Shown: positions 2,829 through 63,470 of the stretch, piece after piece
Numbering within the stretch: the stretch's first letter is position 1
Layout: the number at the start of each line of letters is the position of its first letter
NCBI GenBank assembly: GCA_015069095.1
Contig: SVJH01000002.1
Span: 7,650 to 71,649, forward strand
DNA from: Oscillospiraceae bacterium
Lineage (GTDB): Bacteria; Bacillota; Clostridia; UMGS1810
Direction: 5' to 3'
DNA: 64,000 nt
The notes under the pieces: model-generated
The model's database searches: none
What the model was told of the DNA's origin: nothing
The model's input: only the letters and a program-made list of their open reading frames with translations
Position numbers and translations under genes: made by a program

Positions 2829-3521
2829 ATGATTTATTCTTCAGAAGTTGAAAGAATGTGCGTAGTAAGAAAAGGCGCAAACCATGGTCCTGCACCAATT
2901 CCGGAGGAAGGCAAATGGGTTGCATCAAAAGAAATTAAAGATATCAGCGGTTTAACACACGGTGTGGGCTGGTGTGCTCCTCAGCAGGGTGCTTGTAAGT
3001 TAACACTTAATGTTAAAGACGGTATCATTGAAGAAGCATTAGTTGAAACACTTGGTTGTTCTGGTATGACTCACTCTGCTGCTATGGCAAGTGAAATTCT
3101 TCCTGGTAAAACAATTCTTGAAGCATTAAACACAGACCTTGTTTGCGATGCTATAAACACTGCTATGAGAGAACTTTTCCTTCAGATTGTTTACGGAAGA
3201 ACTCAGACTGCTTTCTCTGAAGGCGGACTTCCAATCGGTGCTGGTCTTGAAGACCTTGGTAAAGGACTTAGAAGCCAGGTTGGTACAATGTACGGTACTA
3301 AAGTTAAAGGTTCAAGATACCTTGAAATGGCAGAAGGTTATGTTACAAAAATCGCTCTTGACGAAGATGATGAAATCATCGGATACGAATTTGTTCATCT
3401 TGGCAAAATGATGGATATGATTAAAAAAGGCGAAGATGCTAACGATGCTCTTAAAAAAGCAACAGGTACATACGGTAGAGTTAGCGATGCTAAAAAACTT
3501 ATCGACCCAAGACATGAATAA
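2829..3521 (+). CDS. NifU/IscU-like iron-sulfur scaffold-like protein (usual partner of the GGGtGRT protein)
   Basis: RBS AAAGGAG lies upstream of the ATG. Cys-containing segment GCSGMTHSAAMASE. The next gene follows 21 nt downstream. Confidence 0.6.
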   Translation: MIYSSEVERMCVVRKGANHGPAPIPEEGKWVASKEIKDISGLTHGVGWCAPQQGACKLTLNVKDGIIEEALVETLGCSGMTHSAAMASEILPGKTILEALNTDLVCDAINTAMRELFLQIVYGRTQTAFSEGGLPIGAGLEDLGKGLRSQVGTMYGTKVKGSRYLEMAEGYVTKIALDEDDEIIGYEFVHLGKMMDMIKKGEDANDALKKATGTYGRVSDAKKLIDPRHE

Positions 3522-3541: not shown

Positions 3542-4543
3542 ATGGCTTTATTCGAAAGTTATGAAAGAAGAATAGATAATATAAATAAAGTATTAAATGC
3601 TAACGGCATTAAATCTTTGGAAGAAGCAAGAGCAATCTGCACAGAAAAAGGCTTCGATCCATACGAAATCGTAAAACAGATTCAGCCAATCGCTTTTGAA
3701 AATGCTGGTTGGGCATACGTTGTAGGTGCTGCACTTGCAATCAAAAAAGGCTGCAAAGATGCTGCTGACGCTGCAGAAGTTATCGGTGAAGGCCTTCAGG
3801 CTTTCTGTATCGACGGTTCTGTTGCTGACGACAGAAAAGTTGGTATCGGTCATGGTAACTTAGGTGCAATGCTTCTTAGAGAAGAAACAAAATGTTTCGC
3901 ATTCTTAGCAGGTCATGAATCTTTTGCTGCTGCTGAAGGTGCTATCGGTATTGCAAGAACAGCAAACAAAGTAAGAAAAGAGCCTTTAAGAGTTATTCTT
4001 AACGGTCTTGGAAAAGATGCTGCACAGATTATTTCAAGAATTAACGGATTTACATACGTTCAGACAAAATTTGACTACACAACAGGTAAAGTTAGCGTAG
4101 TTAAAGAAAAAGCATACTCTGACGGAGAAAGAAGCAAAGTAAGATGTTACGGTGCTGATGACGTTAGAGAAGGTGTTGCTATTATGCATCTTGAAGGTGT
4201 TGACGTATCAATCACTGGTAACTCAACAAACCCAACAAGATTCCAGCACCCAGTTGCAGGTACATACAAAAAAGAATGTATCGAACAGGGTAAAAAATAC
4301 TTCTCAGTTGCTTCAGGCGGCGGTACAGGAAGAACACTTCATCCAGATAACATGGCTGCTGGTCCTGCTTCTTACGGTATGACAGATACTATGGGAAGAA
4401 TGCACTCTGATGCTCAGTTTGCAGGTTCTTCTTCAGTTCCTGCTCACGTTGAAATGATGGGACTTATCGGCGCTGGTAACAACCCAATGGTTGGTATGAC
4501 TGTTGCTGTTGCTGTTGCAGTTTCTGAAGCAATGAATAAATAA
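3542..4543 (+). CDS. GGGtGRT-family protein (conserved, function unknown)
   Basis: Signature SGGGTGRTLHPDN is present. RBS AAAGGAGG upstream. The last ~98 nt are duplicated at 13527-13624. Confidence 0.8.
   Translation: MALFESYERRIDNINKVLNANGIKSLEEARAICTEKGFDPYEIVKQIQPIAFENAGWAYVVGAALAIKKGCKDAADAAEVIGEGLQAFCIDGSVADDRKVGIGHGNLGAMLLREETKCFAFLAGHESFAAAEGAIGIARTANKVRKEPLRVILNGLGKDAAQIISRINGFTYVQTKFDYTTGKVSVVKEKAYSDGERSKVRCYGADDVREGVAIMHLEGVDVSITGNSTNPTRFQHPVAGTYKKECIEQGKKYFSVASGGGTGRTLHPDNMAAGPASYGMTDTMGRMHSDAQFAGSSSVPAHVEMMGLIGAGNNPMVGMTVAVAVAVSEAMNK
4446..4543 (+). repeat. attL-like direct repeat (island-supplied 3' end of the GGGtGRT gene)
   Basis: 92 of 98 positions match 13527-13624 by hand alignment. 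Perfect 44-bp block at 4475-4518. Confidence 0.75.
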
Positions 4544-4604
4544 GATAAATCAATAGTTTTAGAACTTTTGAAAATTTCTTGAAAGTAAATATGTAGAATT
4601 TTTT

Positions 4605-4655
4605 AGTTAGACACATCATTTTAAGGTTTATACCTATGATGTGTCTAACTTTTTT
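4605..4655 (+). terminator. Rho-independent terminator after the reconstituted GGGtGRT gene
   Basis: 15-bp stem AGTTAGACACATCAT / ATGATGTGTCTAACT followed by a T6 run. Confidence 0.6.
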
Positions 4656-4680
4656 ATTTTTAGAAGGGATTATATTTACT

Positions 4681-5622
4681 ATGAAGAAATTACAAATGTC
4701 TAAAGCTGAAACAATTACTTTTGAGCAAGGTTGTAATATGTACCTTGATAACTGCAGACAACGAAATTTGCGCGAAGGAACTATCAATCATTATAAGCAA
4801 AGTTACACTCAATTTTATAAACATTTCAACCCGCAAATGCCAATCACTAATTTGACGCAAGACGTCTATAAACAATTTATTGTACATCTAAGAAAAACAC
4901 TTCACAATGACGTCAGTATCAATTCATACTTGCGCGATTTGATTGCTACATTGCACTTTTTAATGAATGAAGGATATTTGGAGCATTATAAAATGCAAGC
5001 AATAAAAGTTGATAAGGCTCACGTTGAAACTTATACGGATGAAGAATTAAAACTACTATTAAAAAAACCAAATATCAAAAAGTGTAGTTTTTCAGAATAT
5101 CAAAGTTGGGTAATGACAAATTTTCTATTTTGTACTGGAGTAAGACAAAGAAGTTTAATTTTCATTCAAGTAAAAGATGTTGATTTGGATAATAATATGG
5201 TAAAAATAAATGTAACCAAAAACAGAAAACCTCTTCTTGTGCCAATCAACCAAACAATGGCAAACATTTTAAATGAATACTTAAAATATAGACAACATAA
5301 AACAACAGATGATTATTTGTTTTGTAATGTATTCGGTTCTCAACTAGTTAAAAGCACTTGCTATCAACGTCTATATGAATATAATAAACGACGCGGAGTT
5401 GAAACAACAGGCATTCATAGATACAGACATACATATGCAAAACAATGGATATTAAATGGCGGAAATGTTGTTACTCTTTCAAAACTTTTGGGACATTCAA
5501 GTCTTCAAATAACACAAAATTATATAAATTTACTTGTTAGTGATATTGCAGAACAAGTCAACGAAATCAATTTACTTGATAAATTTGCAGGAAATCAAAG
5601 TATAAAAATGAAAAAGAATTAA
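4681..5622 (+). CDS. int: Tyrosine-type site-specific integrase
   Basis: C-terminal catalytic region HRYRHTYAKQW...LLGHSSLQITQNYINL (H-x-x-R ... Y). N-terminal SAM-like core-binding domain. ATG at 4681 chosen within ORF 4636..5622. Confidence 0.85.
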   Translation: MKKLQMSKAETITFEQGCNMYLDNCRQRNLREGTINHYKQSYTQFYKHFNPQMPITNLTQDVYKQFIVHLRKTLHNDVSINSYLRDLIATLHFLMNEGYLEHYKMQAIKVDKAHVETYTDEELKLLLKKPNIKKCSFSEYQSWVMTNFLFCTGVRQRSLIFIQVKDVDLDNNMVKINVTKNRKPLLVPINQTMANILNEYLKYRQHKTTDDYLFCNVFGSQLVKSTCYQRLYEYNKRRGVETTGIHRYRHTYAKQWILNGGNVVTLSKLLGHSSLQITQNYINLLVSDIAEQVNEINLLDKFAGNQSIKMKKN

Positions 5623-5924
5623 ACCATTTTAGAGGATAGAACAATCAATGTTTTATCCTCTATTTTAATGTGATAAAAACATCTTTTATTCCAAAAGAAA
5701 ACAAGCCGGAAACGTCTATAAAACATTTATTTAACATCTTTTTAACTACTCTGATTTGTTTGTTACCGTTACCCACTAAAACAGAATAAAAAAATTTTTT
5801 AAAAAAACTTTGAAATTACCATTATAACGACACTTAGAATTATTGTACATGCTATAATTAAATCATAGAAAGGGCGAGAAAATAATAATCGTCTAAAAAT
5901 AATTATATAAAGGAGGATTTTGAA

Positions 5925-6332
5925 ATGAACATCAAAATCAATGAACAAAAAAAGGTAATAGAGGTAATTGGAAAAGCTTTTTCAAAAAAAGCAAGCGTAT
6001 ACGGAACAGAAGAATACAAGATGCTTCAAGATGCGCGCAAAGACTATCCTACATTCAGAGTAATAACGATAACAAATGCAAAGAAAAAAGTTTGTTATAA
6101 GGGGCTTACTTATGAATACATGGAAATGTATATCGAAAAACACGATGATGAAAACAAGTCAAAAATGTTAGCGTATAAAAATCTCCGTGCTCTTGATGAA
6201 GAATCAGAAATCGCATTTGCCGAAGCCTGTTCTTATCAAGAAATAAAAGAATGGTTTCTAAATGAATTCACAGAGATTGCGGAATTTCACAAAAAACGCG
6301 AATCAATTCTTGCCAATAAAAAATCAGCCTAA
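5925..6332 (+). CDS. Hypothetical island protein, paralog 1
   Basis: RBS AAAGGAGG upstream. Shares EEY..LQ..RKDYP...GLTY.YM..YI.K...IK.WFL with the next ORF. Confidence 0.6.
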   Translation: MNIKINEQKKVIEVIGKAFSKKASVYGTEEYKMLQDARKDYPTFRVITITNAKKKVCYKGLTYEYMEMYIEKHDDENKSKMLAYKNLRALDEESEIAFAEACSYQEIKEWFLNEFTEIAEFHKKRESILANKKSA

Positions 6333-6353
6333 TTCAGAAAGGAGTTTAAGACT

Positions 6354-6788
6354 ATGAAAAACACATTGAAAATCAATCATAATGAAAGAAAAATTATAAT
6401 GGACAGAACTTTTGCAAAATTTGCAGAAAACACTAGAAGCGAAGAATATGCACATCTTCAAATGGTGCGCAAAGACTACCCTAATTACAACGTCTTAGTT
6501 CGTACAATAAAGAAAAATCCAAATAAAAATTGTTATGATGGTCTTACATATCAGTATATGAAAAATTATATTGATAAATACGAAGAAGTAAATCAAAAAG
6601 AAAAAGTGTTGGAAGAATTAGATAATATGCTTTTCATTTCTCGATGCCATTCAAAAGCGCTTCGTTATCCAAAAATCAAAAAATGGTTTTTAGATAAATA
6701 TCCCAACATTGTTAAATTTGGTATGCCTAAAGAAGAAATTGAAAAAACAATTAACCTTTCCAAAAACGAAGTCTCACTGTCTGCATAA
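6354..6788 (+). CDS. Hypothetical island protein, paralog 2
   Basis: RBS AAAGGAG upstream. Paralog of 5925..6332. Confidence 0.6.
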   Translation: MKNTLKINHNERKIIMDRTFAKFAENTRSEEYAHLQMVRKDYPNYNVLVRTIKKNPNKNCYDGLTYQYMKNYIDKYEEVNQKEKVLEELDNMLFISRCHSKALRYPKIKKWFLDKYPNIVKFGMPKEEIEKTINLSKNEVSLSA

Positions 6789-6870
6789 ACAGTCTATTTA
6801 GCTTTTTATTTAACACTAATATATTATATAATAATGTTAATTCATTAACTAAAAAAGAAAGGAACTAATT

Positions 6871-7512
6871 ATGTTAAAACTTGCGTCATATACTAAGTCA
6901 GAAATGACAGAAATATTTAAAACAAAAAATATGCAAGGTCTACAAAGAAAACTTCAAAGAATTGGTGTTTCTTTCAAAGTAACTGGCAAGGGAGATAATG
7001 CGATATTTACAATAACAAATATAGAAAATCCATTTAAAATATATTGTATGACAGAATTAGGTTTTGATGGTCGTTCAGACTTTTACAAAATAAGAAATTT
7101 TTATTATTACTATTTTAATGATGAAGAGTTCAGAAGCATGCCAAATGAAGTACAAGAAAATAGAATGCGATTAGAACATAAATACATATCGAGACAAACC
7201 ATTGCAAATTATATAAATAAACTTTGCAAAAAAAACTTTGTTACTAAAAATAACAGTTATATATATTATTTTGCACATAAAAACAATCAAAGAATAGTAG
7301 AAAAAAAAGAATACTGTGAAGCTTGGCATATGTATTGGAGTGATATTGGAAAAGGATATACTTCACGCGATGCAATCTATAATATGATAAGAAATTACGG
7401 TGGTGTTGCAAGAAAACAAGAGATTGCTGAAATAAATGGTATTTACAATAAAGATATAGAACTTTTACGTAATCTAATACAAGAAGATATGGAAAAAGAA
7501 TTAAGCGAATAA
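6871..7512 (+). CDS. Hypothetical island protein with a possible central helix-turn-helix
   Basis: RBS AAAGGAA upstream. Segment ISRQTIANYINKLCKKNFV resembles an HTH. No family recognised. Confidence 0.5.
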   Translation: MLKLASYTKSEMTEIFKTKNMQGLQRKLQRIGVSFKVTGKGDNAIFTITNIENPFKIYCMTELGFDGRSDFYKIRNFYYYYFNDEEFRSMPNEVQENRMRLEHKYISRQTIANYINKLCKKNFVTKNNSYIYYFAHKNNQRIVEKKEYCEAWHMYWSDIGKGYTSRDAIYNMIRNYGGVARKQEIAEINGIYNKDIELLRNLIQEDMEKELSE

Positions 7513-7572
7513 TTAAGTTTTATATTGGCAACATAATAAAATGCGTATCAAACAAAACTTCATAATAATCTA

Positions 7573-7615
7573 AATGCAAGTAGATTTTTAATTATACTAC
7601 TTGCATTTTTATTTT
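7573..7615 (+). terminator. Rho-independent terminator after the 6871..7512 gene
   Basis: Stem AATGCAAGTAG / CTACTTGCATT followed by a T-run. Confidence 0.55.
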
Positions 7616-7767
7616 GCGAAAACGAAGATAACACCGTTTTTTCATTTCAAAAGTCACTTAGAAAAAGATTAAAGCAAACACAAAAAAATATACGTCTATT
7701 AACCGGTTTTTCCCAAAATATGCCCGCATTCGTCTATAAATATGTTATATTTTAGAAAATAAATTGA

Positions 7768-7823
7768 GTCGGAATATTGACATTCATTATAAAACTAATG
7801 AATGTCAATATTCCGACTTTTTT
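7768..7823 (+). terminator. Perfect 21-bp stem hairpin plus T6 immediately upstream of the mod promoter region
   Basis: GTCGGAATATTGACATTCATT (7768-7788) pairs with AATGAATGTCAATATTCCGAC (7797-7817). 8-nt loop, then TTTTTT. Confidence 0.6.
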
Positions 7824-7892
7824 ATTGATATTGTCATCTAAATATGATATACTCAAAATATCGAAAGCAACAAAAATCCAAGGAGAATTAAA

Positions 7893-9548
7893 ATGGCTAA
7901 TTTTTTTGACACAGTTATTGAAGTTTTGAAACAGGACGAAAGGTTCTTTTCGGAAGAGGGCGAATTACTACGAAACACCGTGTATGAGTCGGCTATGAAA
8001 ATGGATAGCGACCTTTTGAAGTTGCTTTATAATAATGAAATGACAAGAGAACGCTTCTTTACTGATGTTGACGGTATTTCAGTTTTTGATAAAGTCGGCT
8101 TCGGATGGGTTATCAATAATCGTCAGTTTCTTCCCGATTCATATACTCGTTATAAAAACAAAATCGGATTAACGAATGGCAACGGCGATTACATTTCAAC
8201 ATCTAATGATGTTGAGCTTGTATTCCCGTACAAAGATTGCGTTTTGGCTGGCGGTCAAACAAAAGAAGACCAGAATCGTAGCGAAATTTTCTATAACGAA
8301 ACGCTTGCTCCTGATGAAGTGGATAGACTTCTTTATCCGAAAGTATTTACTAACGCTAAAAGATATACTACCAATGGGAAAGAAGAAATTGTTGAATTTA
8401 ACGAAAACGACAATTTAATTATAAAAGGAAATAATCTGCTTGTATTAGCTTCGTTGTTAAAGAGATTTGAGGGAAAAATTAAATGTGTCTATATTGACCC
8501 TCCGTTTAATACTCAAAAAGATGATTTTAAATATAATGACAACTTTAATCATTCAACTTGGTTATCATTTATGAGAAATAGATTGATGATAGCAAAAAAA
8601 TTATTAGCTCCAGATGGCAGTATATTTGTACATTTGGATTTTCATGAGAGTCATTATGCTAAAATTTTGATGGATGAAATATTTGGTAGAGAATGTTTTA
8701 GAAATAATATAGTTTGGTGCTATACAGGTCCATCAGGCTCAAATAATTTTCTCCCAAGAAAACACGATGACATACTTTATTATAGTAAAACAGAAAATAA
8801 CAAGTATCACATACAGTATATCGAACATAAAAGTGGTGTTCATAACAGCGGACAAGTTTTTGGAAGTACAGATGTTATAGACAACTTTAAAGCAGAAGCC
8901 GAGCAGAAGGGAAAGAAGTTAGAAGATTTTTGGTTAGACATATACTCAACCGATAGATATAGGTCTGAAATGCTTGGATTTGCTGGGCAAAAGCCTGAAA
9001 AGCTAATTCAAAGGATACTTAACATTTCAACCGATGAAAATGACATTGTTCTTGATTTTCATCTTGGTTCAGGAACAACTGCGGCAGTAGCACATAAAAT
9101 GAAACGAAAATATATATGTGTTGAACAAATGGAATCCCAAATTGAATTATCTATTGATAGGTTAATAAATGTTATTGACGGGGAACAAACTGGTATATCA
9201 AAAGATGTAGATTGGCAAGGCGGTGGTTCTTTCGTATATTGTGAACTTGCCAAACTGAACCAGAAGTATGTAGATGGTATTCAGACAGCAACAAACGATT
9301 CTGAAATTGTTTCTATTTGGGAAGAGATGTTAAAAACAGGATTTATCAGTTGTAAGGTTAAACCGAGCGAAATTGATATGGAAGATACCGATTTTTTGGA
9401 ATTATCTCTTGACGATAAAAAGCGTTTCCTTATGGAAATGCTTGATAAGAATCAGTTGTATGTAAATTATTGTGATATTGAAGATGAAACTTTTGCCGTG
9501 TCCGAAGCAGATAAGGCATTCACCAAAAGTTTCTATGGGGGGATGTAA
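7893..9548 (+). CDS. mod: Type III restriction-modification system methyltransferase (Mod, N6-adenine, beta class)
   Basis: Motif IV VYIDPPFNT precedes motif I FHLGSGTTAAVA. The res gene follows 2 nt after the stop. Confidence 0.85.
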   Translation: MANFFDTVIEVLKQDERFFSEEGELLRNTVYESAMKMDSDLLKLLYNNEMTRERFFTDVDGISVFDKVGFGWVINNRQFLPDSYTRYKNKIGLTNGNGDYISTSNDVELVFPYKDCVLAGGQTKEDQNRSEIFYNETLAPDEVDRLLYPKVFTNAKRYTTNGKEEIVEFNENDNLIIKGNNLLVLASLLKRFEGKIKCVYIDPPFNTQKDDFKYNDNFNHSTWLSFMRNRLMIAKKLLAPDGSIFVHLDFHESHYAKILMDEIFGRECFRNNIVWCYTGPSGSNNFLPRKHDDILYYSKTENNKYHIQYIEHKSGVHNSGQVFGSTDVIDNFKAEAEQKGKKLEDFWLDIYSTDRYRSEMLGFAGQKPEKLIQRILNISTDENDIVLDFHLGSGTTAAVAHKMKRKYICVEQMESQIELSIDRLINVIDGEQTGISKDVDWQGGGSFVYCELAKLNQKYVDGIQTATNDSEIVSIWEEMLKTGFISCKVKPSEIDMEDTDFLELSLDDKKRFLMEMLDKNQLYVNYCDIEDETFAVSEADKAFTKSFYGGM

Positions 9549-9550
9549 TT

Positions 9551-12139
9551 ATGCCATTCCTTTATGAACAACTTGATACTTTGCGAGATTTCGGAAGTTT
9601 CAGCGAAATACCGTCATACATACAAGAGAATATAAGCTCTCGTTTTGAATTAAGACCGTACCAGATAGGAGCATTTGAAAATTTTATAAACTACTTTGAA
9701 AATGACAAGATGTGCCGTAAGCCGACACAAACGCTTTTTCATATGGCGACTGGTTCGGGTAAAACAATGATAATGGCAGGACTAATGCTATACCTTTATA
9801 AAAAGGGGTATCGTAATTTTCTGTTCTTTGTAAATTTATCAAACATTGTCAATAAAACAAAAGACAATTTCTTGAACGCCAATTCAAGCAAATATCTATT
9901 TGCTGAAGAAGTGCGTATTGACGGAGAACGAGTACCGATTAAAGAAGTGAGCAATTTCCAGTATGCCGATGAAAATGCTATCAATATCTGTTTTACAACA
10001 ACACAAGGCTTACATACGGATATGTGGTTCGCAAAAGAAAATTCCCTTTCTTTTGATGACTTTGCCGACAAAAAAATTGTTCTCATTTCTGACGAAGCTC
10101 ACCACTTGAACGCCGACACAAAGAAATTGGGTAAAGATGAAGAAGAAAATTATCGCAGTTGGGAATATACTGTAAGACGAATTTTTGAAACGAACAAAAA
10201 TAATGTATTGCTTGAATTTACGGCGACTTGCGATATTGCTAATCCGATGATACGAGCAGAGTACGAAAATAAAATTGTTCACGATTATCCGCTTTCAAAA
10301 TTCAGAGCTGACGGCTACTCAAAAGAAATTAAAACTTTGCGTTCGGATTTGGCAGTTGAAGAACGCTCACTGCAGGCTTTGATTCTCAGCCAGTATAGAT
10401 ACAAAGTTTTCCAAGATTACAGACAGAATGTAAAGCCTGTCGTTTTCTTCCAATCAAAGCTCATAAGAGAAAACGCCGAGAATATGGAAAAGATTATTTC
10501 TATGGTTCAATCGCTTACAGGTGAGCGTATAAGACAACTTTTTGAACAATCAACAAGTGAAACGCTTGCGGAAGCTCACTGCTATTTTAAGGCGAACAAC
10601 ATTTCTTATGATGAATTGGCAAGTGAATTGAAAGACGATTTTTCAGCCGAGCATTGTATATCAGCAAATGATAATCAAGAAGTAGAACATAAGCAATTAC
10701 TTCTTAATTCACTTGAAGATAAGTCAAATCCGTACCGTGCCGTTTTTGCGGTTGATAAACTGAATGAGGGTTGGGATGTTCTCAATCTGTTTGACATCGT
10801 TCGTTTATACGAAACTCGAGACGGTAAAAATGGTGTTCCTGGAAAAACGACAATGAAAGAAGCACAGCTTATAGGGCGTGGTGCTAGATATTGTCCGTTC
10901 CAGATTGATGATGAACAAGAGAAATTTAAGAGAAAATACGATTCGGATATTGATAATCCGCTTCGCATTTGTGAAGAATTGTATTATCATTGTTGGAACG
11001 AACCTCGATACATAAGCGAACTTCATACGGCGTTGCGTGAAATCGGTATTGATATTGAGAACCAGACTGTCCGTACCTACGTGTTGAAAGACAGCTTTAA
11101 GGCTGACACTCTCTATAAAAAGGGATTAGTTTTCACAAACGAACGAGTTGAAAAAAGCAGAAAAGATGTTGACGGACTTTTGCCGTCTGTCAGAGAACAC
11201 CTTTATACTGTCAAGCTCGCAACAGGTAGCTCTGGCGAAGATACCATTTTCGGCAACAGTAAAACTACTGACCGTGCGAACAAAACATATACTTATCGTA
11301 CCACCATTTCAGAAATAGCAGATATTAACTATTCAATAGTACATAAGGCGTTATGTAAATATGGCGTGTTCAAGTTTAATACCTTGAAAAGTTATTTCCC
11401 GAATTTGAAATCTACAAAAGAATTCATAACAAGTTCTAACTATCTGGGCGATATCAAAATAGAAATAACATCAAGGTACGAAGAACCGACACCGAACATT
11501 CTTTTGACAGCTTGTGCGAATGTTCTCGGAAAAGTATCTGAATCCGTTTCAGCTATTGAAGTTAGCTATGTTGGAACAACAGAATTCAAGCCGACACGTA
11601 TTCACGAAATGTTTAAGAACAAGAAATGTAATTACACCGTTCGACAGGATGGTGGAGTTGGTTATTCTCAAAATGATATGACTGTTCCGAGCAGTTGGAA
11701 AATTGACTTATCAAAAGAAGATTGGTTCGCATTTGAAGATAACTTTGGAACGAGTGAAGAAAAGGCGTTTGTTGCCTATTTCAAAACATTCGTACCACAG
11801 CTAAAGGAAAAGTACGACAAAGTTTTCCTTATCAGAAACGAAAGACAATTACATATCTATTCGTTTGACGGCGGAGAACGATTTGAACCAGACTTCCTAT
11901 TGTTCTTACATAAACAGAACGCAGACGGCTACGAACAATTACAGGTGTTCATTGAACCGAAAGGAACGCACCTTGTTGGAAACGACAAATGGAAAGAAGA
12001 TTTCTTACTTGAATTGGAAGATAAAGCGGTTGCTACAAAAATCTTTGTTGACGACAACAATTATAAGATTTGGGGATTCCACTTTTTCAATCAAGATGTG
12101 CGTATGAATGAATTTTCGGACGATATGAGCAGATTGTAA
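9551..12139 (+). CDS. res: Type III restriction endonuclease Res subunit (SF2 helicase plus C-terminal PD-(D/E)xK nuclease)
   Basis: Walker A TGSGKT, DEAH box LISDEAHH, and C-terminal EPDFLLFL...FIEPKG nuclease motif. Confidence 0.85.
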   Translation: MPFLYEQLDTLRDFGSFSEIPSYIQENISSRFELRPYQIGAFENFINYFENDKMCRKPTQTLFHMATGSGKTMIMAGLMLYLYKKGYRNFLFFVNLSNIVNKTKDNFLNANSSKYLFAEEVRIDGERVPIKEVSNFQYADENAINICFTTTQGLHTDMWFAKENSLSFDDFADKKIVLISDEAHHLNADTKKLGKDEEENYRSWEYTVRRIFETNKNNVLLEFTATCDIANPMIRAEYENKIVHDYPLSKFRADGYSKEIKTLRSDLAVEERSLQALILSQYRYKVFQDYRQNVKPVVFFQSKLIRENAENMEKIISMVQSLTGERIRQLFEQSTSETLAEAHCYFKANNISYDELASELKDDFSAEHCISANDNQEVEHKQLLLNSLEDKSNPYRAVFAVDKLNEGWDVLNLFDIVRLYETRDGKNGVPGKTTMKEAQLIGRGARYCPFQIDDEQEKFKRKYDSDIDNPLRICEELYYHCWNEPRYISELHTALREIGIDIENQTVRTYVLKDSFKADTLYKKGLVFTNERVEKSRKDVDGLLPSVREHLYTVKLATGSSGEDTIFGNSKTTDRANKTYTYRTTISEIADINYSIVHKALCKYGVFKFNTLKSYFPNLKSTKEFITSSNYLGDIKIEITSRYEEPTPNILLTACANVLGKVSESVSAIEVSYVGTTEFKPTRIHEMFKNKKCNYTVRQDGGVGYSQNDMTVPSSWKIDLSKEDWFAFEDNFGTSEEKAFVAYFKTFVPQLKEKYDKVFLIRNERQLHIYSFDGGERFEPDFLLFLHKQNADGYEQLQVFIEPKGTHLVGNDKWKEDFLLELEDKAVATKIFVDDNNYKIWGFHFFNQDVRMNEFSDDMSRL

Positions 12140-12170
12140 TACCAAAAAAATCATTCTTGAAAGTGAAATT

Positions 12171-13292
12171 ATGGAAGATAGAAAACGAAAGAAATATCCA
12201 AATTTAAATCACGGTAGACAGCACAATCAAAAAATGAAACCGTATCTTATTATGCAATACTTGCTTAAATATACAGATGAAAACAGACCTATAAATGCAG
12301 ATAATCTAGCAGAAATCTTAAAAGAAGATTACGGAATATATGCAGAACGGCGTTCAATTTACAGGGATATAGAAGAAATCAACAAGGCAATTATAATGCT
12401 TGAACAAGAATGTACAATAGAAGAGGCATCTCGCATTCTTGAAGATGATGAATACAACAACGAAAAATTGATTCTTAAAAACAAATATGGATTTTACGCG
12501 CGCCCGCGCGACTATGAAGAAAACGACATACGTCTATTGGCAGAATGTGTCTATTCTGCAAAATTTTTAAGTCAATCTCAATCAAAAGCGCTTGCAGATA
12601 TAGTTTGTACTCTTGTTAATGAAAGGCAAGCAGAAAAAATCAAACACGATGTTCTTTTAGTTGACAGAGTAAGAACAAACAATGCTGAAGTATTAAATAA
12701 CATTTTGACAATTAACGAGGCGATAAGCAAAGAAATTGATGGAAAAAAACATATTCCTGAAAAAATTAGTTTTAAATATTTGAAACACTCCATAAGTGAT
12801 ATGAAAAAACAAGTGGAACGGCGCCACGGAGATACTTACATAACAAGTCCATTTGCATTGATTATCAACGATGGTAATTATTATCTTGTTGCTTTTGACG
12901 ATAAAAAAGAAAAACTCATAAATTATAGAGTTGACCGTATGAAGAATGTTCAGCGCATTGGCGAAAAAAGAAACGGAGAAAAAGAATTTTTTAATCTGAA
13001 TTTAAAATCATATACACAAAGAGTATTTTCAATGTACGGTGGAGAGGAAAAAAGAATAACATTAAAATTCATAACCCCGCTATTGGATGCGATTGTTGAC
13101 CGTTTCGGCACAAAAGATGTTCAGTATTCCAAGAGTGACGACAGACACTTTACTGTTACGGCAAAAGTTGAAGTTAGTGACCAATTTTTCGGTTGGATTT
13201 TGGGATTTGGTAAAAAAGTTCAGATTGTTTCACCGCCAGAAGTAAGACAAGAATTTGCCGCATACCTTGATAAGATAAGAGAGATGTATTAA
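12171..13292 (+). CDS. WYL-domain transcriptional regulator (HTH-WYL-WCX architecture, BrxR/CapW-like)
   Basis: N-terminal wHTH-like region. WYL-type core GNYYLVAFDDKKEKLINYRVDRM. Starts 31 nt downstream of res. Confidence 0.75.
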   Translation: MEDRKRKKYPNLNHGRQHNQKMKPYLIMQYLLKYTDENRPINADNLAEILKEDYGIYAERRSIYRDIEEINKAIIMLEQECTIEEASRILEDDEYNNEKLILKNKYGFYARPRDYEENDIRLLAECVYSAKFLSQSQSKALADIVCTLVNERQAEKIKHDVLLVDRVRTNNAEVLNNILTINEAISKEIDGKKHIPEKISFKYLKHSISDMKKQVERRHGDTYITSPFALIINDGNYYLVAFDDKKEKLINYRVDRMKNVQRIGEKRNGEKEFFNLNLKSYTQRVFSMYGGEEKRITLKFITPLLDAIVDRFGTKDVQYSKSDDRHFTVTAKVEVSDQFFGWILGFGKKVQIVSPPEVRQEFAAYLDKIREMY

Positions 13293-13376
13293 AGAAGTAT
13301 AAAAGATATTAAAAAGATGTTAGTTAGTTGTTTGAAAGATGTATAAAAGTTGTATGCTTTTGAATCAAAACAGGTT

Positions 13377-13405
13377 TTGACAAAATTATTATGCTATGAT
13401 ATAAT
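13377..13405 (+). promoter_or_regulatory. Near-consensus sigma-A promoter facing outward toward attR
   Basis: TTGACA (13377-13382), 17-nt spacer, TGaTATAAT extended -10 (13397-13405). Confidence 0.45.
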
Positions 13406-13526
13406 GTGATTGTAGAATTACATCATTGATGTGACTAACAAAAGAATAATACATACAATAAAACTTTAATTTATCAAAGTTTCCGCTTTGTTACAATTAT
13501 TATCAAGCCCATGAAATGGGCTTGAT

Positions 13527-13624
13527 ACGTTGAAATGATGGGACTTATCGGCGCAGGTAACAACCCAATGGTTGGTATGACTGTTGCTGTTGCTGTTGCT
13601 GTACAGGAAGCAATGAATAAATAA
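13527..13624 (+). repeat. attR-like direct repeat (displaced native 3' end of the GGGtGRT gene)
   Basis: Encodes ...EMMGLIGAGNNPMVGMTVAVAVAVQEAMNK plus a stop, with no gene body upstream. A hairpin (13503-13527) abuts it. Confidence 0.75.
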
Positions 13625-13655: not shown

Positions 13656-13681
13656 AAGGCACTCATTTGAGTGCCTTTTTA
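13656..13681. terminator. Bidirectional terminator (native GGGtGRT terminator and trkH terminator)
   Basis: Stem AAGGCACTC / GAGTGCCTT, flanked by an A-run and a T-run. Confidence 0.6.
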
Positions 13682-13723: not shown

Positions 13724-15166
13724 TTATTTTCTCCATGTAGATGGGCTAAACAAAAGAAGCATCGGGAATATTTCAAGTCTTCCTATAAGCATACACATAC
13801 TTAAAACATATTTAGATAAATCAGAAAACAAAGAAAAATTACCCGTTGGACCGACTAAATCAAGTCCCGGACCAATATTGTTAAGTGTTGCTGCAACAGC
13901 AGTAAAGTTAGTTGTAAAATTAAAATTATCAATACTTATAATTAAAAGTGCCATCATAAATATTGTAACATAAGATGCCATAAACACATTTACACCGCGC
14001 ACTGTTTCGTGGTCTATAATTCTGCCATTCATTTTTATTTTTAATGTAGTTCTTGGATGCGCAGTTGTTCTTATTTCCTTTTTTATACTCTTTAAAAGTA
14101 TTATTATTCTTGAAACTTTTATACCGCCACCCGTACTTCCGGCACACGCGCCGATAAACATAAGTAAAACAAGTATTACCCTTGAAAATTCAGGCCATAT
14201 ATTAAAATCGCAAGTTGTATATCCTGTTGTTGTTATAATTGAGCCTACCGAAAACGCAATATGTCTGAACGCTTCTTCTACGGTTTTAAAAAGATACGAA
14301 CTATTTATAAATATAAGGATTATTGCAGCAGCAATTATTCCCAAATATGCTCTTAATTCTTCAGATTTAAATATATCGCTTTTTCTTTCTCTGAAATACA
14401 AGATAAAATATAAAGAAAAGTTCACACCGAAAAGTATCATAAATATTGTTATTACATACTGAATGTACGGCGAGTACGTTGATATCCCTGAATTCAAGAC
14501 TGAAAATCCACCTGTACCTGCTGTACCAAACGACAATGTAAGCGCTTCAAAAAGCGTCATTTTACCAAAAAGCAACAAGACAATTTCTACAAGTGTCATT
14601 ACAAAATATATTCCGTAAAGAAGTATTGCCGTTGATTTTACCTTCGGCACAAGTTTACTTACAGATGGCCCCGGGCTTTCTGCTTTTAAAATATGAATAC
14701 TTCCTTTACCAAAAAGCGGTGTTACAGCCATCACAAATACAAGCACACCCATTCCGCCGAGCCAATGTGTAAAACTTCGCCACATAAGATGCGCTTTTGG
14801 AAGTGCCTCTACATCTTTAAGTATTGATGCTCCCGTTGTTGTAAAGCCTGATACTGTTTCAAAAAATGCATTTGCAAATGACGGGATATGCCCTGTTATC
14901 ATAAAAGGGAATGCGCCAAAAATACTTATTATTATCCAACTTAGTGCAACTGTAATAAAACCTTCTTTTGCATATGCTTCTTTTGATTTTGGCTTAAATA
15001 AAGTAAGAATTTTACCAACACAAAAACAAAGTGCAATACATATCAAATACGCTATAACTGAAGTTTGCTCTTTGTAACAAATCGCAGTTACAAAAGGAAC
15101 AATAAGCGCAAAAGATTCTATTTTAAGCACTGAGCCGAACATATAAAGTATCATTCTATAATTCAT
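13724..15166 (-). CDS. trkH: TrkH/KtrB-family potassium uptake membrane protein
   Basis: Polytopic membrane protein with repeated GFTTTG / GTGGFS / GSTGGGIK selectivity-filter-like motifs. Confidence 0.85.
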   Translation of the reverse strand: MNYRMILYMFGSVLKIESFALIVPFVTAICYKEQTSVIAYLICIALCFCVGKILTLFKPKSKEAYAKEGFITVALSWIIISIFGAFPFMITGHIPSFANAFFETVSGFTTTGASILKDVEALPKAHLMWRSFTHWLGGMGVLVFVMAVTPLFGKGSIHILKAESPGPSVSKLVPKVKSTAILLYGIYFVMTLVEIVLLLFGKMTLFEALTLSFGTAGTGGFSVLNSGISTYSPYIQYVITIFMILFGVNFSLYFILYFRERKSDIFKSEELRAYLGIIAAAIILIFINSSYLFKTVEEAFRHIAFSVGSIITTTGYTTCDFNIWPEFSRVILVLLMFIGACAGSTGGGIKVSRIIILLKSIKKEIRTTAHPRTTLKIKMNGRIIDHETVRGVNVFMASYVTIFMMALLIISIDNFNFTTNFTAVAATLNNIGPGLDLVGPTGNFSLFSDLSKYVLSMCMLIGRLEIFPMLLLFSPSTWRK

Positions 15167-29962: not shown

Positions 29963-30038
29963 TGGAGCTGGTGATCGGACTTGAACCGACGATCTATTGA
30001 TTACGAATCAATTGCTCTACCGACTGAGCCACACCAGC
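29963..30038 (-). tRNA. tRNA-Thr (anticodon CGU)
   Basis: Cloverleaf read by hand: acceptor GCTGGTG/CACCAGC, anticodon loop TTCGTAA, T-loop GGTTCAAGTCC, encoded CCA. A terminator hairpin lies downstream at about 29923-29962. Confidence 0.85.
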
Positions 30039-30230: not shown

Positions 30231-30323
30231 CTTCATCACCTCTTAAAAGTATTATGCAAAAACAAAAACTTTTTATACTACTTTACAAATAATACTACAA
30301 GTGATATAATATTGTCAAATATA

Positions 30324-30478
30324 AATCTTCAGGGCGGGGCGAAATTCCCCACCGGCAGTTATAGTCTGCGAGCTTTTTGCTGATTTGGTGAAATTCCAAA
30401 ACCGACGGTACAGTCCGGATGGAAGAAGAATTTTTATGTGTATTATTTTGCCCTGTTTTATATAAACAGGCTTTTTTT
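30324..30478 (+). promoter_or_regulatory. FMN riboswitch (RFN element) with terminator
   Basis: Conserved AGGGCGGGGCGAAATTCCCCACCGGC ... GATTTGGTGAAATTCCAAAACCGACGGTA ... CCGGATGGAAGAAG. Terminator CCTGTTT..AAACAGG plus a T-run. TGaTATAAT promoter upstream. Confidence 0.9.
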
Positions 30479-35599: not shown

Positions 35600-35799
35600 G
35601 ATAAATTCCTCCAGAATTAAAAAATGCGCCGACCAAAGCCGACGCATGAAAAACGCAGGGACTTCGATCGTTTTAAATATTGCTACATAATTAAAACACC
35701 ATATTTCCAAAAAAGAGGGTATGACAAATCGAAGTGTACGCCTTTCTTAAAATAGCGTACCCCTTATTGGAAATATTATTTTAATTAATTATGTAGCAT
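35600..35799 (-). promoter_or_regulatory. Structured 5' leader with intrinsic terminator (copy B)
   Basis: Promoter TTGACA (35827-35832 rc), 17-nt spacer, TAAAAT (35804-35809 rc). Closing helix 35785-35799 / 35681-35694. Terminator 35624-35647. Confidence 0.6.
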
Positions 35800-51750: not shown

Positions 51751-51764
51751 AAAACTTTCTCCAA

Positions 51765-51973
51765 AATTAAAAAATGCGCCCACCAAAGCGAGCGCATAAA
51801 AAACGCAGGGACTTCGGTTAGGTCGCTAAACTCTAAAATACGTGCTACGAATAAAAAATACGAAAGCGGTATTAAAACCGAAGTATACGCTTTTTGTAGC
51901 GTATACACTTCCGTTATTTTTTATTCATACATATCAGCACAAAATTATTCCATTTTCAATTTTAGAGTTTAGC
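51765..51973 (-). promoter_or_regulatory. Structured 5' leader with intrinsic terminator (copy C)
   Basis: Promoter TTGCCA (52003-52008 rc), 17-nt spacer, TAAAAT (51980-51985 rc). Perfect 15-bp closing helix 51959-51973 / 51825-51839. Terminator 51774-51797 plus a U-run. Confidence 0.6.
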
Positions 51974-63231: not shown

Positions 63232-63470
63232 AAAAAAGATAGAGGCGCAATTGTTAATAAGTAGTTTTTAACAAGGTTTGGCAAAGCCGTTTTAAGTTAA
63301 ATACAAAAGGTAACATTGCCGAAGAACATTTTTTATGCCGGAAAATGTATCTGGGCATACGCAAAATATGCGTATGACTGTCACTTTTATAGTGTTGTGC
63401 TAAAAGTGTTGTGCTATCGCCATATATATTGTATATACAGGCGGAGGCATAAAGCATCCGTCTTTTAATT
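63232..63470 (+). promoter_or_regulatory. Lysine riboswitch (L-box) with terminator
   Basis: Conserved elements AGAGGCGC, TTGCCGAAG, CTGGG, CTGTCAC and GTGCTATC in the expected order. Terminator hairpin at about 63440-63463 plus a T-run. Upstream of asd. Confidence 0.8.

Follow-up and report, generated by a model that had tools for sequence, protein, structure and literature searches.

Integration into the 3' ends of protein-coding genes, with tandem accretion at the occupied site and the formation of cis-mobilizable elements (CIMEs), is classical behavior for bacterial genomic islands (PMC5704250). The integrative mobilizable elements (IMEs) of streptococci lie at rpsI, rplL, rpmE and rpmG, SGI1 lies at trmE, and the mobilizable genomic islands (MGIs) of Vibrio lie at yicC; one of the last, MGIVchMoz6, carries a Type II restriction–modification (R–M) system (PMC5704250). 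The control of such integrations has been worked out for larger elements. In the integrative and conjugative elements (ICEs) ICEKp1, ICEclc and ICEEc1, read-through from the host promoter is attenuated by a leader stem-loop while the element is integrated, and once it is excised, transcription from a promoter near its 3' terminus crosses attP into the integrase gene (int) (Liu et al., Nucleic Acids Research 2026, PMC13023037). Mobile hotspots for defense genes have also been described, among them those of P4-like satellites (PMC9122126), the integration hotspots of Escherichia coli (PMC10121019) and the pipolins (PMC11551731). Here, we describe an element from a 64-kb stretch of DNA from an Oscillospiraceae bacterium (contig SVJH01000002.1), which we call 'the window'. 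The segment between positions 4544 and 13526 of the window is, very probably, a site-specific integrative genomic island, placed by its own tyrosine integrase at the 3' end of a GGGtGRT-family gene, whose end was rebuilt in the process, and composed of a conserved backbone and an R–M cargo. An earlier note on this DNA, made by inspection of the sequence, had proposed such an island and had called gene-restoring integration at the end of a protein gene classical; the precedents just cited bear out that description.

The geometry of the insertion is simple. The last 98 nt of the GGGtGRT gene (4446–4543) recur at an offset of 9081 bp (13527–13624). Compared without gaps, the two copies are identical at 92 of 98 positions, and their longest perfect run is 44 bp (4475–4518, equal to 13556–13599), exactly as the earlier note had counted by hand. 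The GGGtGRT open reading frame (ORF) is still full length after the insertion; its final 98 nt constitute the left copy of the repeat, attL, and beyond its stop codon comes a terminator that belongs to the island. The right copy, attR, has island DNA upstream of it and no gene body; it preserves the in-frame TAA and runs on into a terminator hairpin. The encoded C-terminal tails differ slightly, the left copy ending in AVSEAMNK and the right copy in AVQEAMNK. Immediately inside the left boundary is an intact ORF (4636–5622) for a tyrosine integrase of the Xer-like kind. The earlier note had picked out the repeats, the two tails, the terminators and a tyrosine integrase at this place, and its account of them stands. 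On the left, the island is flanked by a NifU-like gene and GGGtGRT, and on the right by trkH and trkA, which are convergent with the displaced gene end. The terminator shared by that end and trkH occupies the same place in two contigs, L004 and L005, in which the site is empty (labels of this form denote the related loci and contigs with which the window was compared).

A repeat of this kind might, in principle, have nothing to do with site-specific recombination, and have arisen by chance, as one of a dispersed family, as the target duplication of a transposon, or by segmental duplication of the gene end. The bare existence of the repeat is all that speaks for such an origin, to which we assign practically no probability. 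An independent repeat search of the whole window recovered this 98-nt pair (94% identity) and no further copies. The repeat is therefore not dispersed; a generic dispersed sequence was one of the outcomes that the earlier note had named as refuting its reading. At 98 bp, it is also far longer than any target-site duplication, and the same gene end flanks integrase-bearing inserts, in identical register, in at least 20 other species.

The fidelity of the integrase for this gene end is evident across its family. We aligned 19 integrase relatives, and then searched one genome for each GTDB species. The scan gave 80 loci, with integrases 62–88% identical, all in uncultured animal-gut Clostridia; the hosts belong to the Oscillospiraceae, Acutalibacteraceae and Christensenellaceae. 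One locus has no upstream DNA. In the other 79, without exception, the GGGtGRT gene or a 3' fragment of it lies just upstream of the integrase gene and on the same strand, with a median gap of 148 bp between them (68 loci are within 300 bp). The earlier note had suggested that the integrase and the 44-bp core be sought together in other genomes; in all 79 evaluable loci, which represent different GTDB species, the integrase and the GGGtGRT end occur together. At least 20 loci display a second, or a second and a third, GGGtGRT 3' fragment 1–13 kb downstream. From 20 loci, 22 attL/attR pairs could be compared: the homology always starts at codon ~302 (HVEMMG) and ends at, or just after, the stop codon. 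Tandem arrays occupy the gene end in six loci (L020, L032, L035, L056, L064 and L066). Some of these arrays (L032, L064 and L066) contain short, integrase-less units bounded by att copies, which resemble CIMEs, and some bring together two integrase lineages that are ~70% identical, as in the single genome of L056 (the same locus as L090). The identities of integrases and host genes are coupled weakly (Spearman rho 0.37), which fits multiple island lineages and horizontal movement. Among 2.9 million IMG/VR contigs, only one (L090) carries the integrase family. In L012 (4549–5900, minus strand), a second module of the type found next to the window integrase (o213/o135/o144) lies inverted, ~2.5–3.5 kb upstream of the NifU-like gene and away from the GGGtGRT site.

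None of 13 publications found to mention GGGtGRT presents it as an att site, and the gene is absent from the published target lists that we searched. The earlier note had known of no such description, and these publications do indeed concern matters other than integration. What is new here, then, is GGGtGRT as an att target, the size and fidelity of the integrase clade that uses it, and an uncharacterized backbone. The features of the island and its immediate flanks are collected in Table 1.

Table 1. Features of the island and its borders, in window coordinates
Feature	Position	Strand	Basis or remark
GGGtGRT-family protein, 333 aa (target gene)	3542–4543	+	Pfam PF14057, E 4.8e-196, profile 1–327 of 327
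attL, left copy of 98-bp imperfect direct repeat	4446–4543	+	Ungapped alignment; repeat search
Candidate crossover core	4475–4496; second copy 13556–13577	+	Mismatch profile, 22 attL/attR pairs
Island-supplied terminator hairpin (predicted), 15-bp perfect stem and T-run	4605–4650	+	z-score -5.45
Tyrosine integrase, 313 aa	4681–5622 (ORF open from 4636)	+	Pfam Phage_integrase PF00589, 8e-28, and SAM-like domains
11-bp-phased array, AACATCTATTT x3.3, reverse of AGATGT	5711–5746	-	int–o135 spacer
o135	5925–6332	+	Unknown ORF, paralogue of o144
o144	6354–6788	+	Unknown ORF, paralogue of o135
o213	6871–7512	+	Unknown ORF; tblastn matches in 6 loci
Hairpin, perfect 23-bp stem and T-run	7767–7818	+	z-score -13.3
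Mod, Type III R–M methyltransferase	7893–9548	+	Pfam N6_N4_Mtase 3.8e-52, TypeIII_RM_meth 5.8e-24; PADLOC MTase_III 6.3e-180
Res, Type III R–M restriction subunit	9551–12139	+	Pfam ResIII 1.1e-33; PADLOC REase_III 2.2e-127, residues 16–859
WYL/WCX regulator	12171–13292	+	Pfam WYL 2.3e-9, WCX 7.4e-11; PADLOC WYL 6.4e-28
11-bp-phased array, AGATGTATAAA x6.7	13282–13355	+	Just upstream of outward promoter
Outward sigma-70 promoter (predicted), TTGACA-17-TATAAT with extended TG	13377–13405	+	12/12 consensus match
Third exact copy of GTTAGWCACATCA	13427–13439	-	In inverted repeat ACATCA-N3-TGATGTG just downstream of promoter
Perfect 12-bp inverted repeat abutting att repeat	13501–13527	+	Hairpin at att boundary
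attR, right copy, gene-less fragment (residues 302–333 with in-frame stop)	13527–13624	+	Alignment; repeat search
Native bidirectional terminator, common to displaced gene end and convergent trkH	13656–13677	.	T-run; folding z-score -3.88
trkH	13724–15166	-	Convergent with displaced gene end

The integrase most likely begins at the ATG at 4681 rather than at 4636, because the latter falls inside the terminator hairpin, and because the ATGAAGAAA start at 4681 is conserved in related islands, together with the ribosome-binding site that precedes it. The protein is short and Xer-like, with two domains and without an arm-binding domain. Its active-site motifs are GVRQRS (from residue 153), TKNRK (179), HRYRHT (246), LGHSS (270) and TQNYI (278), and the 19 aligned relatives show no variation at the catalytic R, H-x-x-R, H and Y. 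Matches to the NCBIfam models for XerA, XerC and XerD fall below the cut-offs of those models; the nearest solved structures are XerA and XerD. We rejected a prophage origin: the nearest integrases in phage records are <30% identical, and the sole IMG/VR match, L090, is the same tandem-island locus as L056.

Within the repeat, GGTAACAACCCAATGGT (4475–4491) is the least-mismatched stretch over the 22 repeat pairs, with three mismatched cells in total, and its nucleotide conservation among species is at least 90%. Strand exchange most probably takes place inside this stretch, to judge from the mismatch profile. Overlapping it, at 4477–4496, is a dyad, TAACAACC-CAAT-GGTTGGTA, whose arms match at 7 of 8 positions when read from the sequence; a simple recombinase of the Xer-like kind would require a dyad of this sort.

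Empty alleles of the site, which the earlier note had proposed to look for, do exist. The exact GGGtGRT protein of the window is found on 21 metagenome contigs, most of which carry the same island. In L004 and L005, in contrast, the gene encoding this protein runs straight into its native terminator and trkH. L094, whose GGGtGRT protein is 99% identical, is likewise unoccupied and has the same right-flank synteny as the window. Long contigs from related species, L091 (96% protein identity) and L092/93 (93%), contain only one gene end and lack an integrase.

Which of the two tails is native, and which came with the island, is a subtler matter. The earlier note held VQEAMNK to be native and VSEAMNK to be supplied by the island, and this polarity is probably correct. 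The unoccupied genes of L091 and L094 both end in VQEAMNK, and the gene end of L091 is identical to the attR copy of the window at 98 of 99 positions. In addition, L014 and L017, closely related islands in different hosts, have in common the unusual attL tail VQECMNK; the attR of L017 encodes VQEAMNK, so the attL tail evidently travels with the island. The proposal does not stand in its entirety, for the S/Q difference is also, by comparison of these alleles, a natural polymorphism: the empty sites L004 and L005 carry VSEAMNK. It may be that a RecA-type deletion occurred in the L004/L005 lineage. Alternatively, the polarity could be the reverse. Crossover would then have taken place at the extreme 3' end of the gene, the left, VSEAMNK copy would be wholly native, and the right copy, up to ~13606, would be an island-borne mimic acquired from a former host of the VQEAMNK type. 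The proteins of L004 and L005, 100% identical to the attL gene product with VSEAMNK included, speak for this alternative. It is nevertheless decidedly unlikely, in our view, as a whole. In the 22 repeat pairs, mismatches are comparatively frequent over the last 18 nt and almost absent from 4475–4491, and at two positions within the 44-bp block neither window copy agrees with L004 and L005; the tails of L091 and L094, the near-identity of L091 to attR, and the island-type attL tail that L014 and L017 share in different hosts count against it as well. We therefore continue to treat VQEAMNK as the probable native tail.

The two ends of the island appear to be organized for control of the integrase. 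On the left, between the GGGtGRT stop codon and the ribosome-binding site of int, is a hairpin of the form AGTTAGACACATCAT-N16-ATGATGTGTCTAACT, followed by a T-run. It holds two copies of the motif GTTAGACACATCA and is conserved in seven islands; in an alignment of five islands, 2 of the 18 predicted base pairs covary via G-U intermediates. We found no promoter-like site on the plus strand between 4544 and 4681. On the right, the outward promoter points across attR, and in an excised circle would read over attP into int. The attR ends of all nine WYL-type islands, and that of the first island in L020, each have an equivalent promoter 104–151 bp ahead of the att repeat (10 of 10); none of the 11 other attR ends examined has one. 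Both parts of a state-dependent promoter switch—a leader stem-loop and an outward promoter at the opposite end—are thus present as predicted features, and are conserved across islands.

Other sequences at the island ends may take part in the same control. The motif GTTAGWCACATCA is common to the left hairpin and the inverted repeat downstream of the outward promoter, all three of its exact copies in the window are at the island ends, and its GATGTG core is invariant in six islands. The inverted repeat that encloses the third copy may be an operator or an arm site. At the position directly abutting attR, hairpins of different sequence, but with the stem kept, occur in L016, L017, L035, L064 and L073. 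Five related islands, L016, L017, L065, L072 and L073, have the AAAGATGT motif in their right arms as well. The phased array in the int–o135 spacer is possibly a protein-binding array, and the AGATGT arrays in general could be sites for a recombination directionality factor (RDF) or a regulator, or iterons. We do not regard AAGATGTW as an island-specific motif: it is enriched window-wide (21 matches against 8 expected), and the 8 matches in the island are not decisive. Downstream of the promoter, 13412–13527 comprises ~115 nt of structured, non-coding sequence that ends in the hairpin at the att boundary, and this may be a small RNA or a leader. Rfam gave no match in the island, and the unit from promoter to hairpin (13377–13527) is not a known RNA family.

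These observations suggest a scheme for how the island was installed and how it might be mobilized. The Xer-like integrase would have recombined attP of the island, carrying a ~98-bp replica of the last 32 GGGtGRT codons, with a chromosomal attB at the end of the gene. The product attL would consist of the host gene body, the island-borne tail and the island-borne terminator, and attR of an island-borne head followed by the native tail, now displaced, with its own terminator; because attL joins the host gene body to the tail that the island brings, the gene stays intact. While integrated, int would be without a promoter of its own, and the hairpin at 4605–4650 would shield it from GGGtGRT read-through. 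After excision, the outward promoter at 13377–13405 would read across attP into int and so favor re-integration. Across the family, the integrase lineage targets this one gene end, and its islands exchange cargo and accumulate in tandem. We infer a promoter switch, and also that the island is still active.

All of the island genes are on the plus strand. Directly after int come the paralogues o135 and o144 (39% identical to each other), a module that holds the same position in 21 of the 80 related loci. Neither protein matched Pfam, NCBIfam or PADLOC; PHROGs gave only sub-threshold matches (best E 5.7e-4, to a family of unknown function). A weak sequence match in the Protein Data Bank (PDB; 2kiw, E 0.09) raised the idea that they are Int N-terminal domains, which we found unsupported, and an AlphaFold2 model of o144 (41-sequence alignment; mean predicted local distance difference test score, pLDDT, 79.6) matched no fold in either PDB (best E 0.27) or BFVD (best E 0.12). 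The next gene, o213, is conserved in the closest islands, and had no match in Pfam, NCBIfam, PHROGs or PDB. A predicted terminator hairpin with a perfect 23-bp stem then divides the conserved module from the cargo. This comprises mod and res, which are co-oriented, 2 bp apart, and near full-length in their matches; HI_1054 domains are recorded on proteins identical to Res. By these profile matches, Mod and Res form a complete Type III R–M system. Homologues of either were found in none of the other 80 related loci, and no phase-variable repeats were found in mod. Most likely, as the gene content implies, the benefit of the island to its host is the restriction of phage and other foreign DNA. 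The last gene, for a WYL/WCX regulator, is present full-length in 17 related loci, usually as the last gene before attR. Its N-terminus matched no helix-turn-helix (HTH) model, only Clr5 below threshold, and its sequence matches in PDB are weak (E 0.006).

Islands of the window type, recognized by tblastn and clustering in ~10 bounded loci, have a common plan: int, paralogues of the o135/o144 type, sometimes o213, a variable slot, the WYL regulator, and attR. At least one other type of island has a different backbone, made up of 462-aa, 158-aa and other proteins that are essentially unannotated. We took a census of the cargo in 20 bounded islands, which encode 140 proteins, among them 16 small serine recombinases and 8 WYL regulators. 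The serine recombinases (resolvases/DNA invertases of ~190–237 aa) number roughly one per island (L016, L017, L035, L064, L072, L073, L026, L047, L049, L051, L056, L068 and L087); the window island is without one. Cargo varies from island to island and is partly defensive: GmrSD, AbiLi, AriA, HEC-06, TIR, Macro, DndB-HEPN with a Dam methylase, AbiU2 and other methyltransferases were found, along with genes for surface and other proteins, including leucine-rich repeat (LRR)/BspA, BNR, Sel1 and SLH proteins and an ABC transporter.

What kind of element this is depends on more than its integrase. No relaxase, coupling protein or Type IV secretion system was recognized in the island (Pfam, NCBIfam and PHROGs) or among the 140 related-island proteins; an origin of transfer (oriT) is not recognizable with these tools. 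Genes for capsid, terminase, packaging, primase or replication proteins were also lacking in the island and in the 140 proteins (Pfam and PHROGs), and a search of three intergenic gaps for small excisionase ORFs yielded only implausible, low-complexity ones. As judged from its sequence, then, the element has the features that define an integrative island, and those that we looked for of an ICE, an IME, a prophage or a satellite were not found.

Several observations weigh against the view of an integrase-made, gene-restoring island that we prefer, or at least against parts of it. The check that the earlier note had proposed for the circular attP junction and the repaired attB came back empty, exact-pattern scans of metagenome contigs of the Joint Genome Institute (JGI) finding neither the junction nor the exact-strain attB, though assemblies rarely capture rare circles. 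Neither an excisionase or RDF nor a gene for a relaxase, replication or packaging was recognized. Every contig with this exact integrase has identical flanks, and all of them therefore trace to one insertion event. The closest empty sites, L004 and L005, carry the tail that we suppose to be island-borne. The freedom from mismatches of the core, which encodes Gly-Asn-Asn-Pro-Met-Val, is in part due to codon constraint. The promoter and the terminators are no more than predictions, made from consensus or folding. And, finally, the contrast in GC content between island (0.322) and flanks (0.343–0.363; whole window, 0.343) is small; we did not retain the island as a compositional outlier, the shift being so modest that composition alone would not reveal it.

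Some of these same observations would suit a fixed remnant, an island that entered this lineage in a single integration and has since been passed on by vertical descent, its int gene kept but silent; the window would then hold a scar of the mobility of the family. The single insertion context of all exact-integrase contigs, the missing circular junction in JGI contigs, the lack of recognized RDF or transfer genes, and an int without a promoter of its own are all in keeping with it. Even so, we think it unlikely: the integrase ORF is intact with every conserved catalytic motif present, the two att copies still share a perfect 44-bp block with the core in it, the hairpin and promoter of the regulatory layout are both undamaged and conserved, and closely related strains are without the island. 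A further possibility is an element that depends on a helper, either a satellite resembling the phage-inducible chromosomal islands (PICIs) or an IME with only an oriT, whose transfer module is not yet recognizable, and in which o135, o144, o213 and the 11-bp-phased arrays would have roles in replication, excision or hijacking. Taken as one proposal, this is somewhat unlikely. It would account for the conserved backbone of small proteins of unknown function beside int, the iteron-like phased repeats (13282–13355 and 5711–5746), the weak correlation of integrase lineages with host divergence and the tandem of two lineages in L056, and a review of IMEs remarks that many islands equipped with an integration module alone could be satellites, or IMEs with just an oriT (PMC5704250). 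On the other side, no capsid, terminase, primase/Rep, relaxase or coupling-protein match was found in the island and the 140 related proteins, the integrase family is on one IMG/VR contig in 2.9 million, and the o144 model is without a fold match. Neither proposal displaces the integrative island as our preferred description.

A bolder generalization, which we offer tentatively and consider rather unlikely to hold in all its parts, is that islands at the GGGtGRT end form a class of their own, not described before, among the small mobile elements of uncultured gut Oscillospirales. The class would have a Xer-like integrase clade with thousands of members, and a backbone—o135/o144, o213, the WYL regulator, the phased AGATGT arrays and, at the right end, a unit of promoter and hairpin that might in addition produce a ~120-nt RNA—that encodes a new strategy for excision, regulation or transfer. 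If this is true, the locus would be the main hotspot of exchangeable cargo and defense in these bacteria.

The remainder of the window holds other features of note. Directly upstream of GGGtGRT, 2829–3521 encodes a 230-aa protein with a weak NifU_N match; the pairing of NifU-like gene and GGGtGRT is kept in 58 of the 80 related loci, which suggests a two-gene unit. In L001, L002 and L006, a transposase of the IS110 family, ~1.3 kb outside the window on its left, separates the spoVA genes from the gene for an acetyltransferase with which the window opens. A small, dispersed palindromic element, GGCTCCCTTGYSYAAAGGGAGC, with conserved flanks, occurs at 1475, 18032, 35297, 35827, 36104 and 36242, and has matches in the related contigs L091 and L094; it looks like a repetitive extragenic palindromic (REP)-like or terminator repeat family. 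A 64-nt direct repeat (35603–35666 and 51753–51816; 88% identity) is separated by 16 kb. Six copies of a 37-nt unit, at irregular spacings of 135–729 nt, lie between ~26100 and ~27700, and may be repeat modules of one gene. There is a flavin mononucleotide (FMN) riboswitch at 30321–30434, a lysine riboswitch at 63232–63424, and a tRNA-Thr(CGU) at 29963–30038.

Mobile elements are poorly annotated in the uncultured Clostridia of animal guts, and the GGGtGRT 3' end, together with a recognizable integrase clade, provides a precise and conserved landmark by which islands and their cargo can be located in them. The cargo slots mix known defense genes with many unannotated ones, and so are a hunting ground for new defense systems. 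The integrase is compact, and its candidate core of ~20 bp lies in a gene that these Clostridia have throughout; it is a possible integration tool for organisms in which genetics is lacking. The locus adds a new target gene to a classical mechanism, and extends the promoter-switch layout, as a prediction only, to small islands of Firmicutes.

Comparison with the systems with which we began places the island more exactly. Like the mobile defense hotspots, the island family has a conserved backbone around a variable slot, the contents of which differ between close relatives and include known defense genes. Unlike them, its backbone proteins are unrelated and uncharacterized, satellite and PolB hallmark genes are absent, and the cargo of the family is not exclusively defensive (LRR/BspA, BNR, Sel1 and ABC transporter genes occur). 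The regulator recalls BrxR and CapW, in being a ~370-aa protein with WYL and WCX domains beside defense cargo. It differs from them in that Pfam detects no N-terminal HTH and its PDB matches are only weak (E 0.006), and in that its gene is downstream of the cargo rather than upstream, and is a member of the backbone that is not tied to one defense system. Set against the IMEs and MGIs of 3' gene ends, the island has a different target, GGGtGRT (PF14057), different hosts, uncultured gut Clostridia, and a short, Xer-like integrase that is <30% identical to any in phage records, and has no recognizable relaxase, oriT, RDF or replication gene. It resembles those elements in its single tyrosine integrase at one end, in tandem accretion with integrase-less, CIME-like units (L032, L064 and L066), and in the R–M and other defense genes of its cargo. 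ICEKp1, ICEclc and ICEEc1 are large, conjugative elements at tRNA genes of Proteobacteria, with a mechanism that has been measured; here, the host gene encodes a protein, the island is 9 kb long and has no transfer genes, and the corresponding steps are predicted from sequence and conservation. The layout is the same in both: int lies at one end of the element and reads in the same direction as the host target gene, the terminator native to the host has been moved to the opposite end, a stem-loop terminator (here a predicted one) occupies the 5' leader of int, and a promoter, again predicted in the island, faces outward from the 3' end.

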